From Escherichia coli (GTDB lineage Bacteria > Pseudomonadota > Gammaproteobacteria > Enterobacterales > Enterobacteriaceae), in assembly GCF_003334305.1 (NCBI RefSeq), contig NZ_QOWS01000006.1: DNA of 64,000 bases; one strand, given 5' to 3'. Positions 2,363-46,899 of the stretch are shown here, one piece after another (position 1 is the stretch's first letter; every line of letters begins with the position of its first letter). The notes under the pieces are model-generated. The model was not told the DNA's origin. It saw only the letters and a program-made list of their open reading frames with translations, and searched no databases. The translations under genes were made by a program, and so were the position numbers.

Positions 2363-3598
<1,236 letters not shown>

Positions 3599-3614
3599 TT
3601 ATGTAGCGCATGAC

Positions 3615-3699
3615 TGCCGGATGCGGCGTAAACGCTTTATCCGGCCTACATTCGTGCTCCCGTAGGCCTGATAAGACGCATTAGCGTCGCATCAGGCAG
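3615..3699. repeat. REP (repetitive extragenic palindrome) pair in the caiB-caiA spacer
   Basis: GCCGGATGCGGCGTAAACGCTTTATCCGGCCTACA and GTAGGCCTGATAAGACGCATTAGCGTCGCATCAGGC in inverted orientation. Confidence 0.85.
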
Positions 3700-3708
3700 C
3701 GCACGGAC

Positions 3709-4851
3709 TTAGCGGTATTGCTTCAGCACCGCGCGACCCAGCGTCAGGATCTGCATTTCGTCAGATCCCCCGGAGACGCGGTCTACACGCAGATCACGCC
3801 AGAAGCGGCTGATGCGGTGGTTGCCCGCAATCCCGACACCGCCCAGCACCTGCATTGCGCTATCCACCACTTCAAATGCCGCATTGGCGCAGAAGTATTT
3901 GCACATCGCTGCATCGCCAGAGGTGATGGTGCCGTTGTCTGCTTTCCACGCTGCTTCATACAGCATGTTTTTCATGGAGTTTAATTTGATCGCCATGTGG
4001 GCGAATTTTTCCTGAATCAACTGGAAACGACCAATAGCCTCGCCAAACTGCACGCGCTGGTTGGCGTAGCGCGCCGCATCTTCAAAGGCGCACATCGCCG
4101 TACCGTAGTTGGTGAGGGCTACCAGGAAACGTTCATGATCGAACTCTTCTTTGACGCGGTTAAAGCCGTTACCTTCCCGACCGAACATGTCTTTCTCGTC
4201 CAGTTCCACGTCGTCAAAGGTGATTTCACAGCAGCTATCCATACGCAGACCGAGCTTTTCAAGTTTGGTCACTTTGATGCCCGGTTTGCTCATATCAACA
4301 AACCATTCGGTGTAGACAGGTTTGTCCGGAGAAGCCCCGTCGCGCGCCATCACCACGATGTACGGGGTGTAGGCGCTGCTGGTAATAAAACACTTACTAC
4401 CATTAAGATAAATCTTACCATTTCTACGGGTATAAGTCGTTTTCAGGCTACCCACGTCGGAGCCCGCGCCCGGTTCGGTAATCGCTGAGTTCCACATCTG
4501 CTTACCGGTGCCGCGGAAAGCCATAATCTTGTCGATCTGCTCTTGTGTGCCTTCGCGCAGGAAGGTGTTGAACCCGCCCGGCAACTGGTACAGCACATAG
4601 GTTGGTGCCCCCAGACGTCCCAGCTCCATCCACACGGCGGCGAGAGTAACAAACCCCGCGTCCAGACCACCGTGCTCTTCAGGGATCAGCAGACTGTCGA
4701 TACCCATATCCGCCAGTGCTTTGACAAAACGTTCCGGGTAGACGCTGTCACGGTCGCACTCGGCAAAATAGGCCTCCCAGTTTTCGCTGGCCATCAGTTC
4801 GCGGATACCGGCGACAAACAGTTCCTGCTCATCATTTAAATTAAAATCCAT
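3709..4851 (-). CDS. caiA: crotonobetainyl-CoA dehydrogenase/reductase (acyl-CoA dehydrogenase family)
   Basis: 380-aa [22 protein letters not shown]...; acyl-CoA dehydrogenase-like. Confidence 0.95.
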
Positions 4852-12244: not shown

Positions 12245-14770
<2,526 letters not shown>

Positions 14771-14792
14771 TTTTGTATAGAATTTACGGCTA

Positions 14793-14828
14793 GTGCCGGA
14801 TGCGACGCCGGTCGCGTCTTATCCGGCC
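14793..14828. repeat. single REP element between the convergent folA and apaH
   Basis: GTGCCGGATGCGACGCCGGTCGCGTCTTATCCGGCC. Confidence 0.8.
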
Positions 14829-14847
14829 TTCCTATATCAGGCTGTGT

Positions 14848-15690
14848 TTAAGACGCCGCCGCTTCGCCCAAATCCTTATGCCGGTTCGACGGCTGGACAA
14901 AATACTGCTTATCTTCCCAGCGCAGGCAGGTTAATGACCCACCCCAGCAGCAGCCGGTATCCAGCGCGTAAATACCTTCCGGCGTACCTTTGCCTTCCAG
15001 CGATGCCCAGTGACCAAAGGCGATGCTGTATTCTTCAGCGACAGGGCCAGGAATCGCAAACCACGGTTTCAGTGGGGCAGGGGCTTCTTCCGGCGATTCT
15101 TTGCTGTACATATCCAGTTGACCGTTTGGAAAGCAAAAACGCATACGGGTAAAGGCGTTGGTGATAAAACGCAGTCTTCCCAGCCCCCGCAATTCCGGTG
15201 ACCAGTTATTTGGCATATCGCCGTACATAGCGTCGAGAAAGAAGGGATAGGAGTCACTCGATAGCACCGCTTCTACATCGCGCGCGCACTCTTTGGCGGT
15301 CTGTAGATCCCACTGCGGCGTGATCCCTGCGTGGGCCATCACCAACTTTTTCTCTTCGTCGATTTGCAGCAAAGGCTGGCGACGCAGCCAGTTAAGCAGC
15401 TCGTCGGCATCCGGCGCTTCCAGCAGCGGTGTCAGGCGATCTTTCGGTTTATTGCGGCTGATCCCGGCAAATACCGCCAGCAGATGCAGATCGTGATTGC
15501 CCAGCACCAGACGTACGCTGTCGCCTAAGGATTTCACATAGCGCAGAACATCCAGCGAACCCGGCCCGCGCGCGACCAGATCGCCCGTCAGCCAGAGGGT
15601 ATCTTTCCCAGGGGTAAATTCTACTTTATGCAGCAATGCGATCAGTTCATCGTAACAACCATGAACGTCGCCAATAAGGTATGTCGCCAT
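14848..15690 (-). CDS. apaH: bis(5'-nucleosyl)-tetraphosphatase (symmetrical), Ap4A hydrolase
   Basis: 280-aa [19 protein letters not shown]... with metallophosphatase motifs GDVHG and GNHD. Confidence 0.95.
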
Positions 15691-34226: not shown

Positions 34227-34311
34227 TTGGTAACGAATCAGACAATTGACGGCTTGACGGAGTAGCATAGGGTTTGCAGAATCCCTGCTTCGTCCATTTG
34301 ACAGGCACATT

Positions 34312-35076
34312 ATGCAAGCATTGCTGGAACACTTTATTACCCAATCCACCGTGTATTCATTGATGGCGGTGGTGTTGGTGGCCTTTCTGGAGTCGCTGGC
34401 GCTGGTCGGTTTGATTCTACCCGGTACGGTGCTGATGGCGGGGCTGGGAGCGCTGATTGGCAGCGGCGAGTTAAGTTTCTGGCACGCCTGGCTGGCAGGG
34501 ATCGTCGGTTGCCTGCTGGGCGACTGGATCTCCTTCTGGCTGGGCTGGCGTTTTAAAAAGCCGTTGCATCGCTGGTCATTTCTGAAGAAAAACAAAGCAT
34601 TACTCGATAAAACTGAACATGCGTTGCATCAACACAGCATGTTCACCATTCTGGTCGGTCGCTTTGTTGGCCCGACGCGTCCGCTGGTGCCAATGGTGGC
34701 GGGAATGCTGGATCTGCCGGTGGCAAAATTCATTACGCCGAATATTATCGGCTGCCTGCTGTGGCCACCGTTTTACTTCCTGCCTGGGATTCTGGCGGGC
34801 GCGGCGATCGATATTCCAGCCGGAATGCAGAGCGGCGAGTTTAAATGGTTGCTGCTGGCGACGGCGGTATTTTTGTGGGTTGGTGGCTGGCTGTGCTGGC
34901 GGTTATGGCGCAGCGGTAAAGCAACCGATCGTTTAAGTCATTATTTGTCGCGCGGCCGTTTGTTGTGGCTGACGCCGTTAATTTCTGCCATCGGCGTGGT
35001 GGCGCTGGTGGTGTTAATTCGCCACCCGTTGATGCCGGTGTATATCGATATTTTGCGTAAAGTGGTTGGGGGTTAG
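34312..35076 (+). CDS. yabI: DedA-family inner-membrane protein
   Basis: 254-aa hydrophobic ORF MQALLEHFITQSTVYSLMAVVLVAFLESL... Confidence 0.85.
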   Translation: MQALLEHFITQSTVYSLMAVVLVAFLESLALVGLILPGTVLMAGLGALIGSGELSFWHAWLAGIVGCLLGDWISFWLGWRFKKPLHRWSFLKKNKALLDKTEHALHQHSMFTILVGRFVGPTRPLVPMVAGMLDLPVAKFITPNIIGCLLWPPFYFLPGILAGAAIDIPAGMQSGEFKWLLLATAVFLWVGGWLCWRLWRSGKATDRLSHYLSRGRLLWLTPLISAIGVVALVVLIRHPLMPVYIDILRKVVGG

Positions 35077-35094
35077 GAGATAGTCTTGTGCGGG

Positions 35095-35182
<88 letters not shown>

Positions 35183-35189
35183 GTGCATA

Positions 35190-35888
35190 CTAACCCGTAA
35201 TCCCCAATAGTGCCGAAGCACTCGCCTTACCGCTCAACAACTCATTGGTCTTACCCTGCCAGGCGATGCGCCCGTCGGCGACCACCACCGAGCGTGTGGC
35301 GATCCGCGCCGCATCTTCCACACTGTGCGACACCATCAATAGCGTCATTTTTTGCTGCTGGCAGCTCGTGCTCACCAGCGTCAGCATCTCCTGACGTAAC
35401 GCCGGATCGAGCGCAGAGAACGGTTCATCGAGCAATAAAATCGGCTGTTCGCGCACCAGACAACGCGCTAACGCCACGCGCTGTCGCTGACCGCCGGAAA
35501 GCTCGCCCGGTAACCGCGCCATTAAATTATCAATCCCCATCTGGCGGGCGATAGCGTGCATTTTCTCCTGCTGCGCCGCGTTCAGCTTCAATCCCGGATT
35601 AAGCCCCAGCCCGATGTTCTGCGCGACCGTCAGGTGGCTGAACAGGTTGTTCTCCTGAAACAGCATCGATACCGGACGGCGTGACGGCGGCGTCGTGGTG
35701 TGATCAACGCTGTCGATAGTCAGCGAACCGCTGGCTGGCGTCAGAAAACCGGCAATCAAATTCAGCAGGGTACTTTTACCCGCGCCGCTTGGCCCGAGGA
35801 TTGCCACCTGCTCGCCGCGTTCTACCGTTAAGCTAAAACGCATCGGCAAATGGTGATAAAGCCAGGTGATATCAGTCAGTTTTAACAT
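35190..35888 (-). CDS. thiQ: thiamine ABC transporter ATP-binding protein
   Basis: Track ORF extends to 35909; the internal start [20 protein letters not shown] at 35888 gives 232 aa; Walker [10 protein letters not shown]; 17-nt overlap with thiP. Confidence 0.9.
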
Positions 35889-38441: not shown

Positions 38442-38479
38442 TTTGCACCTCAAAAAAGAGTGGCAAAGGACTTGAGAAG

Positions 38480-38565
38480 GAGCCTCAAATCCCTTCGCCG
38501 GCGTTATCCGGATCAGGTTCGACGGGTATTTTCTCAGCGCACGCGTTTGCGTGGCACCCCGTTGA
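38480..38565 (-). ncRNA. TPP (thi-box) riboswitch in the thiBPQ 5' leader
   Basis: Minus-strand GGGGTGCCACGCAAACGCGTGCGCTGAGAAAATACCCGTCGAACCTGATCCGGATAACGCCGGCGAAGGGATTTG carries the conserved CUGAGA and ACCUGAUCNGGAUAAUGCC-like thi-box. Confidence 0.85.
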
Positions 38566-38604
38566 GAACGGCGTTAGTGTAGTGATTTTGTTATCTACCA
38601 GCAA

Positions 38605-40327: not shown

Positions 40328-40554
40328 GATGAAGCAAGGGGGTGCCCCATGCGTCAGTTTTATCAGCACTATTTTACCGCGACAGCGAAGTTGTGCTGGT
40401 TGCGTTGGTTAAGCGTCCCACAACGATTAACCATGCTTGAAGGACTGATGCAGTGGGATGACCGCAATTCTGAAAGTTGACTTGCCTGCATCATGTGTGA
40501 CTGAGTATTGGTGTAAAATCACCCGCCAGCAGATTATACCTGCTGGTTTTTTTT
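40328..40554 (+). ncRNA. sgrS: sugar-phosphate stress small RNA SgrS (Hfq-dependent, dual-function)
   Basis: Starts GATGAAGCAAGGGGGTGCCCC...; contains the base-pairing segment GAGTATTGGTGTAAAATCACCCG and ends in the terminator hairpin CCAGCAGATTATACCTGCTGG plus a U8 tract; divergent from sgrR. Confidence 0.9.
40349..40480 (+). CDS. sgrT: 43-aa peptide encoded within SgrS (glucose-uptake inhibitor)
   Basis: ATG at 40349 gives MRQFYQHYFTATAKLCWLRWLSVPQRLTMLEGLMQWDDRNSES; it is the 3' part of track ORF 40181-40480. Confidence 0.85.
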   Translation: MRQFYQHYFTATAKLCWLRWLSVPQRLTMLEGLMQWDDRNSES

Positions 40555-46532: not shown

Positions 46533-46560
46533 TAAAAAAACCCGCGCAATGGCGCGGGTT
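46533..46560 (-). terminator. leu operon attenuator (intrinsic terminator between leuL and leuA)
   Basis: Minus-strand CCCGCGCCATTGCGCGGG followed by TTTTTTTA, 22 nt after the leuL stop. Confidence 0.85.
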
Positions 46561-46582
46561 TTTTGTTTGACTGCGTGCTGGC

Positions 46583-46669
46583 TTAATGCTGGATGCCGCT
46601 CACTCGTCTACCGCGCAAAGAAGATGCGTTTAGTAGTAGTAGACCGATAAAGCGAACGATGTGAGTCAT
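46583..46669 (-). CDS. leuL: leu operon leader peptide (28 aa, four tandem Leu codons)
   Basis: Hand translation of the complement of 46583-46669 gives [28 protein letters not shown]; the four Leu are all CUA; followed by the attenuator hairpin; it is the 3' part of track ORF 46583-46774. Confidence 0.85.
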
Positions 46670-46899
46670 TAAATCAGCTCCAGATGAATGCGATATGCTT
46701 TTAGAGTTACTGGATACAAAAACGGATGTCAACCCTGACGCAATAAAAACGTCCCGCCAGCGTGAGTTCTGCATCCGTAAAATTAGCTAATTGTGCTGCG
46801 GTGGTTAAAGTAAGCGATATTAATTTCTGCTTAACTACCGACGCTTTTCATCGGTTGACATATTTCAGCATAAATTTTTGCATCTAATCAACGAGGAAA

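Follow-up and report, generated by a model that had tools for sequence, protein, structure and literature searches.

Palindromic sequences lie between caiB and caiA, inside the caiTABCDE operon, in an Escherichia coli contig (NZ_QOWS01000006.1, assembly GCF_003334305.1) of which a stretch of 64,000 nucleotides, hereafter the window, was analysed. A preliminary description of this DNA had named them canonical REP units, together with similar sequences in four further spacers, and had regarded their copy number as a likely source of the differences in length from K-12. The REPs of E. coli, also called palindromic units, are reportedly organised as BIMEs, a description that is said to go back to Stern in 1984 and to Gilson and Bachellier. 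The questions raised by the cai spacer are therefore if these sequences belong to that family, how far they account for the differences from K-12, and what they could do at the ends of genes.

Nine REP units in five gene spacers

The 64-kb window was collinear with positions 35,536-101,039 of K-12 MG1655, with an identity of ~98-99%, and a 701-bp query over the first locus (caiB/caiA) was 100% identical to many E. coli chromosomes, including that of SE11. The genes around the five spacers were placed from open reading frames and the K-12 annotation; the RefSeq table consulted for K-12 listed no REP features. Two spacers separate co-oriented genes inside operons, namely caiB (2363-3580, minus strand) from caiA (3709-4851, minus strand, stop codon at 3709-3711) in caiTABCDE, and araD (ending near 29627, minus strand) from araA (from 29796, minus strand) in araBAD. 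The other three lie in convergent gene pairs: folA (ending at 14770, plus strand) and apaH (14848-15690, minus strand), djlA (ending at 22647, plus strand) and rluA (from 22764, minus strand), and yabI (34312-35076, plus strand) and thiQ (from 35190, minus strand, stop codon at 35190-35192). The split into two intra-operonic sites (cai and ara) and three convergent ones given in the preliminary description agrees with this layout, and its canonical REPs are real at all five spacers, as nine units were recognised by reading, by a profile scan and by folding, and the Rfam naRNA4 model matched at the same five loci. Its coordinates were good to 1-3 nt; the unit at folA/apaH, given as 14793-14828, was refined to 14795-14831 (2-3 nt off).

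The nine units, all of them in gene spacers, comprise four inverted pairs (BIMEs) and one singleton. The strand of a unit was defined as the one reading 5'-GCC..CTAC-3', and in the five stretches inspected the units read as GCC(G/T)GATGCG...CTTATC(C/A)GGCCTAC. In the caiB-caiA spacer, a y-type REP on the plus strand (3616-3649, reading GCCGGATGCGGCGTAAACGCTTTATCCGGCCTAC on that strand and with GTAG on the minus strand, which is the mRNA strand) is placed tail-to-tail, across a 12-nt linker (3650-3661), with a z2-like REP on the minus strand (3662-3697), which has 0 mismatches to the strict pattern and was also found by the profile and by folding. In the cai mRNA, this z2-like unit begins 11 nt past the caiA stop codon.

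The araD-araA pair is likewise tail-to-tail and, with its 13-nt linker, makes up one 85-bp BIME unit. Its first member is a short y-like REP of 29 nt (29696-29724, plus strand), the weakest of all in the profile scan (E = 1.3e-4), in which the upper stem is truncated and of which tandem repeats are present in K-12; its second member is a z2-like REP (29738-29773, minus strand) with one stem mismatch, beginning 22 nt past the araA stop codon. That stop codon is itself adjoined by a possible degenerate half-REP at 29778-29795, which reads acctgatgtggctac here and accggatgcggctac in K-12.

A third tail-to-tail pair, with a 14-nt linker, was found at yabI/thiQ, where a z2-like REP (35097-35133, plus strand) begins 20 nt past the yabI stop codon and a y-type REP (35148-35181, minus strand), whose lower stem includes a compensatory U-A pair, begins 8 nt past that of thiQ. 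The pair at djlA/rluA is head-to-head and BIME-2-like, and matches Rfam naRNA4; a z2-like REP (22658-22694, minus strand), with its GTAG from 10 nt past the djlA stop codon, is followed after a 15-nt linker (22695-22709) by a y-type REP with a 1-nt deletion in the lower stem (22710-22742, plus strand). The singleton at folA/apaH (14795-14831, plus strand) is atypical: its lower stem is of the y type and its upper stem of the z2 type, it carries GAAG for GTAG, and it gave only weak naRNA4 matches.

Hairpin structure of the units

When folded in the GTAG orientation, all nine units gave the same kind of hairpin, in which a lower stem of 7 bp is followed by the 2x2 AA/GC mismatch, an upper stem with 2-6 bp as folded and a loop, and the GTAG located 5' of the hairpin foot was kept in eight of them, the folA/apaH unit being the exception. 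In the alignment of the nine units, 98% of the stem cells were paired, compared to 24-48% when the partner columns were slid. Changes on both sides were observed in three pairs of this alignment: G-C to U-A at stem position 4, which is the difference between y and z, C-G to U-A in the thiQ-side unit at 35148-35181, and A-U to G-C in the upper stem. The covariation score was reached by none of 500 shuffles. The y units were identical to the crystallised y REP GTAGGACGGATAAGGCGTTTACGCCGCATCCG (PMC3479197) at 30 of 32 positions, counted by eye, and the z units matched the z2 half of the Rfam naRNA4 consensus, which comprises a y half and a z2 half.

Spacers containing REPs were also folded as RNA from the transcribed strands, giving z scores of -2.75 to -4.9 against shuffles; the cai spacer (3581-3708) reached -51.1 kcal/mol (z = -3.5).

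Scans of the window and class of the pairs

A profile made from the nine units scored them with E values between 2e-11 and 1e-4, and the next best match in the 64 kb had E = 2.3; as such a profile is circular for its own units, it shows only that none was missed. Formal scanning with a REP consensus had been proposed as a check in the preliminary description, and the sequences do match, with 0.00 matches to the strict consensus pattern expected in shuffles. A rigid 36-nt consensus allowing up to three mismatches recovered only two of the nine units, its loop length being too strict. The first fuzzy regular expression had found five units, along with a match in sgrS (40344-40372) that is a false positive, and was superseded by the profile and Rfam.

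The Rfam model naRNA4 (RF02564), which is derived from the REPs of the REP325 BIME and is independent of our units, matched only at these five loci (E up to 10). The match at djlA/rluA (22661-22740, minus strand) scored 75.8 bits and passed the gathering score (59.5 bits), whereas those at the other four loci, with 27-40 bits, fell under that threshold. Queries made from REP-containing spacers were dispersed; the median number of places per genome was 27 for one of them and 9 for another.

The elements share with the E. coli REP/BIME family (y, z1 and z2; PMC3333891) the imperfect palindrome of 29-37 nt, the 5' GTAG and the 2x2 stem mismatch, as well as the extragenic site, the inverted pairs with short linkers and the variation in tandem copy number at araD-araA. 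There is no essential difference, although one unit here is a y/z hybrid with GAAG (14795-14831) and another has a truncated upper stem (29696-29724). That the five loci are members of the classical E. coli family of REPs, or palindromic units, is in our judgement nearly certain.

Regarding the class of the pairs, BIME-1 (y plus z1, with a long L linker containing a site for IHF) was ruled out. The linkers measure 12-15 nt and a search for the IHF consensus WATCAANNNNTTR in all five spacers gave no match; therefore, the pairs are not BIME-1 and are BIME-2-like or atypical. The traits of BIME-2 that were found are four pairs of y and z2-like units, short linkers, and amplification of the ara pair from one to three times among strains, with one unit per locus here.

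Differences in length from K-12

Over the whole window, K-12 is longer by 1504 bp, and the two sequences are separated by two multi-base differences and five single-base indels. Both multi-base differences fall in REP spacers. The araD-araA spacer of K-12 measures 284 bp and holds three 85-bp pairs in tandem, compared to one pair in 168 bp here; the additional 170 bp of REP in K-12 are partly offset by a BoxC/TMECO element of 54-55 bp that is present here. At djlA/rluA, the spacer of K-12 measures 1507 bp and contains an island with yabP/yabQ, a remnant of espY1, and no REP, compared to 116 bp with a REP pair here; this site accounts for 1391 bp of the extra length of K-12. Spacer lengths are the same in both strains at cai (128 bp), folA/apaH (77 bp) and yabI/thiQ (113 bp). 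Therefore, the proposal that REP copy number is the source of the length differences holds for the 170 bp at araD-araA, but not for the island at djlA/rluA or for the three spacers of equal length, and copy number does not explain the bulk of the difference.

The second repeat at araD-araA had been overlooked in the preliminary description. It is a BoxC/PIT/TMECO triplex-motif repeat on the minus strand (29638-29692), flanked by the REP pair on one side and by the Shine-Dalgarno of araD on the other, and its core (29651-29685) is an exact match to the TMECO consensus of PMC4666352, with 0.00 matches expected by chance. The pattern searched was CCCTCNCCC N3-6 GGGNGAGGG N3 GGGNGAGGG, intergenic and multicopy. 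In addition to the exact consensus, the element shares with the published BoxC/PIT/TMECO repeats its intergenic site, its multicopy nature (a median of 12 places per genome for the family) and a spacer that varies between strains, as reported for TMECO loci (PMC4666352). The junction between BoxC and araD was present in 1569 of 5426 complete genomes, and the block alters the bases immediately 5' of the araD ribosome-binding site compared to K-12. BoxC/TMECO and REP are separate repeat families, linked here by the ara spacer that they have in common and elsewhere by the replacement of REPs at yabI/thiQ.

Variation of the five spacers among E. coli strains

Ten further genomes were chosen across the range of identity, ~40 kb around lptD was taken from each, and the five spacers were extracted, so that 12 strains could be compared. 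As proxies for the population, places covering at least 80% of a junction query were counted in 5426 genomes. This comparison of copy number across strains, also proposed in the preliminary description, gave a constant cai spacer and four variable ones.

The cai pair was present in all 12 strains, in spacers of 117-128 bp. At araD-araA, one, two or three pairs were found, with spacers of 114, 199 or 284 bp, and yabI/thiQ had two, one or zero units among the 12 strains; the two-unit form of the latter was detected in 4754 of the 5426 genomes (~88%). The REP at folA/apaH was found in three of the 12 strains, the remaining ones having ccdAB or other genes and no REP, and the REP form was present in 2857 genomes of 5426 (~53%). 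This agrees with the figure of roughly 50% that a passage of PMC3184786 attributes to Mine et al. 2009. The REP pair at djlA/rluA was detected in half of the strains (6/12), in spacers of 116, 117 or 149 bp; the rest had an island of 1.45-1.5 kb (espY1 or yabPQ) and no REP, and the REP form was counted in 2462 of the 5426 genomes (~45%). E. coli strains in nature can thus dispense with four of the five sites.

Several details of the alternative alleles were recorded. The 77-bp folA/apaH spacer of the window (14771-14847) is the allelic alternative to a ccdAB (ccdO157-type) toxin-antitoxin cassette or to cargo of another kind. In the alleles with cargo, the REP is missing and apaH differs slightly at its 3' end (849 vs 843 nt). 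The island that takes the place of 22648-22763 at djlA/rluA carries the gene of the T3SS effector espY1 or its K-12 remnant yabP/yabQ, plus a fragment of an IS4/Tn5 transposase. In the 149-bp allele of the same spacer, seen in three strains, the loop of the z unit apparently holds a complete extra REP (gtaggcctgataagacgcg | gtaggccggataagacgcgccagcgtcgcatccggc | gagcagcatcagaca), a nested arrangement that, if true, would be direct evidence for REP insertion. At yabI/thiQ (the orthologue of 35077-35189), two of the sampled strains had a BoxC-type element (ttcccctcaccc...ggaggggcgaggggg) instead of the REP pair, so two unrelated repeat families alternate at one site. Finally, the orthologue of the araC-yabI spacer (34227-34311), which has no REP in the window, was another insertion hotspot in four sampled strains, with inserts made up of an IS630 fragment and two hypothetical genes, or of a five-gene island (sugar kinase, DHDPS-like protein and tripartite tricarboxylate transporter).

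Among the 12 strains, therefore, four of the five REP spacers alternate among REP, BoxC and gene cassettes (ccdAB; espY1/yabPQ), and the alleles that bear cargo lack REPs. It is conceivable, though improbable, that REP spacers are the preferred exchange points of this segment, the REP being an attachment site or the scar of an empty site in a cassette turnover driven by TnpA-REP or by IS elements.

The caiA-caiB spacer in other genera

Species representatives searched with a degenerate CaiB peptide pattern yielded 66 loci, and the caiA-caiB spacer could be delimited in 63 of them, with lengths from 27 to 386 bp. The pair found in the window was the same in Escherichia sp. MOD1, whereas E. whittamii had three pairs with 36-nt linkers in a spacer of 386 bp and a divergent representative labelled 'E. 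coli' had seven REP units in 305 bp. Salmonella and Citrobacter had REP-like families of their own at this junction, and an unrelated perfect hairpin followed soon after the caiA stop codon in Proteus, Providencia, Trabulsiella, Pluralibacter, one of the two Shewanella species and others.

The folding of these spacers had a median z of -3.4, with 78% of the values below -2, so that a stable hairpin is present in most of the 63 species with sequences that are unrelated. The caiB-caiC spacer, used as a control, was also structured (median z = -2.2, with 60% below -2). This weakened the idea of a specially conserved hairpin at caiA-caiB; intercistronic hairpins appear as a general trait of the cai operon, and not as one unique to this junction. 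The cai junction across genera also suggests, as a milder variant of the turnover described above, that REPs colonise and replace intercistronic hairpins that existed before them.

Proposed role of the REPs at DNA and RNA level

The explanation that best covers these data, and which we consider probable, is that the loci are REP/BIME hairpins, spread as DNA by TnpA-REP and, as RNA, protecting the upstream mRNA and damping read-through. For the narrower claim that these particular REPs act locally as RNA stabilisers or attenuators, our confidence is only slightly better than even. Against it count the dispensability of four of the five sites and the structured caiB-caiC control; in its favour are the strong folding of the spacers and the cai pair kept in all 12 strains.

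At the DNA level, according to the literature, REPs would be non-autonomous hairpin elements that the Y1 transposase TnpA-REP (RAYT) recognises in single-stranded form. Binding takes place through the 5' GTAG and the stem mismatch, both of which are needed (Ton-Hoang 2012, PMC3333891), and the enzyme cleaves at CT dinucleotides located in linkers and next to the inverted partner, and can recombine BIMEs. The araD-araA BIME of MG1655 is itself a substrate for cleavage and strand exchange or recombination by TnpA-REP, and the number of tandem BIMEs differs between strains (PMC3333891). TnpA-REP could in this way account both for the dispersal of REPs and for the tandem gain and loss of 85-bp pair units. 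On the same basis, the folA/apaH unit, with GAAG, should not be recognised by TnpA-REP. No RAYT (TnpA-REP) gene was found within the 64-kb window.

At the RNA level, a single unit, or both arms of a pair together, would form a stable G+C-rich hairpin without a U-tract, and such a hairpin would block 3'-to-5' exonucleases and, aided by Rho, could partially attenuate transcription. In caiTABCDE, the REP pair would favour caiT-caiA over the downstream genes caiB-E, and that of araBAD would favour araB-araA over araD; at the three convergent junctions, each of the two transcripts would owe both the formation and the protection of its 3' end to the REPs. A literature search on REPs in cai or araBAD returned no relevant paper. 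A 2026 preprint (10.64898/2026.03.23.713779) describes REP325 as a partly Rho-dependent attenuator and as a stabiliser of upstream mRNA, and reports that the ratio of upstream to downstream expression is higher genome-wide in tandem gene pairs that contain REPs, with elevated expression in convergent pairs. In the same preprint, loci varied greatly and REPs did not change the half-life of mRNAs in a uniform way.

Given that every element forms a G+C-rich hairpin where a gene ends, simple Rho-independent terminators and palindromes arisen by chance had to be considered, but no hairpin is followed by a U-tract, a scan for intrinsic terminators detected none at four loci and one weak match of chance level in the yabI/thiQ linker, and the match to the consensus goes far past chance. 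Such an origin has a negligible probability and is already refuted by the sequence; with no convincing intrinsic terminator in the five spacers, the REPs are their only strong 3' structures. The djlA/rluA pair might also encode a nucleoid-associated RNA like naRNA4, condensing the chromosome with HU, given that its match is above the gathering score and on the strand that corresponds to the 3' UTR of rapA-rluA. However, the Rfam model is essentially a profile of a y-linker-z2 BIME, so the match shows family membership and not function; in addition, REP325/naRNA4 caused no measurable nucleoid compaction (10.64898/2026.03.23.713779), and the pair is missing from about half of the E. coli genomes, K-12 included. 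This role was set aside on the grounds of the preprint and of the absence of the locus in about half of the strains, and we see it as very improbable. It is also unlikely, to a lesser degree, that the elements are mainly protein sites on DNA, that is, BIME-2-type gyrase, IHF or Pol I sites that shape supercoiling or chromosome organisation. Pairs of y and z2-like units with short linkers have the architecture of BIME-2, and an extract of PMC6379681 describes in vivo gyrase cleavage sites as over-represented in a BIME-2 subset; nevertheless, the loci highlighted for gyrase enrichment in that extract are the multi-site BIME-2 loci sucC-sucB and tldD-yhdP, none of the five studied here, and the lack of the IHF consensus and the length of the linkers exclude the BIME-1 type.

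Two other explanations deserve more weight. As quoted in section 8 of PMC12306157, a REP located less than 16 nt past a stop codon can make the ribosome stall during termination, so that less of the upstream protein is produced (Liang, Rudd and Deutscher 2015), and the distances for caiA (11 nt), djlA (10 nt to GTAG, 14 nt to the stem) and thiQ (8 nt) make these three genes candidates that may be subject to such an effect. Translational down-regulation as the explanation for these REPs is nonetheless doubtful, since at most three of the eight flanking genes would be affected, with folA, apaH, rluA, araA and yabI at 16-24 nt, and the djlA of K-12 does without any REP. More plausible, although still tentative, is that the REPs are selfish or neutral passengers, dispersed by TnpA-REP and persisting where they are harmless, in convergent gaps and roomy operon spacers, with no selected local function. 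The polymorphism in presence or copy number at four of the five loci (12 strains and 5426 genomes), the interchange of ccdAB, the espY1 island or BoxC with REPs at identical sites, and units that are decaying (GAAG in the folA/apaH unit, the 1-nt stem deletion in 22710-22742 and the stem mismatch in 29738-29773) all speak for it, and such widespread presence/absence polymorphism keeps it alive. Against it stand the cai pair, fixed in 12 of 12 strains at a junction where other genera keep an unrelated hairpin, the published effects of REPs on expression, and the maintenance of the stems by compensatory changes, although the requirements of the transposase could explain these changes equally. 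Passenger DNA of this kind and TnpA-REP-spread elements that form protective RNA hairpins are compatible and do not exclude each other.

Relation to known systems

REPs between malE and malF are said to act as mRNA stabilisers, a role credited to Newbury and Higgins in 1987. There, a REP pair lies between cistrons of one operon, and the same is true of caiA-caiB and araA-araD. With REP325/naRNA4 (RF02564; PMC4550694; 10.64898/2026.03.23.713779), the djlA/rluA locus shares the head-to-head y-linker-z2 unit, and its position in a 3' UTR fits the dual model of terminator and stabiliser; REP325, however, has six tandem units compared to one at djlA/rluA, and the other four loci are tail-to-tail pairs or a singleton. 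The REPINs of Pseudomonas and their RAYTs (PMC3116915) are likewise inverted REP doublets, whose mobilisation is ascribed to a Y1 transposase present in single copy, but belong to another sequence family and host, and the window has no RAYT gene.

REPs, BIMEs, their intra-operonic and convergent locations, the variation in copy number (at araD-araA specifically) and the alternative of REP or ccdAB at folA-apaH are already in the literature. As these are long-described families at sites known to carry them, the finding is correct but ordinary. For annotation, its value lies in masking or labelling the nine REP units and the BoxC element as repeats, and these elements pinpoint the structural differences between this strain and K-12. 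The natural alleles with zero to three pairs also provide a ready-made series for testing the effects of REPs on operon polarity.

Apart from the REPs, the Rfam matches in the window comprised SgrS (40328-40554, plus strand), the leader of the leu operon (46534-46683, minus strand) and the TPP riboswitch upstream of thiB (38472-38571, minus strand), all at the positions expected from K-12.
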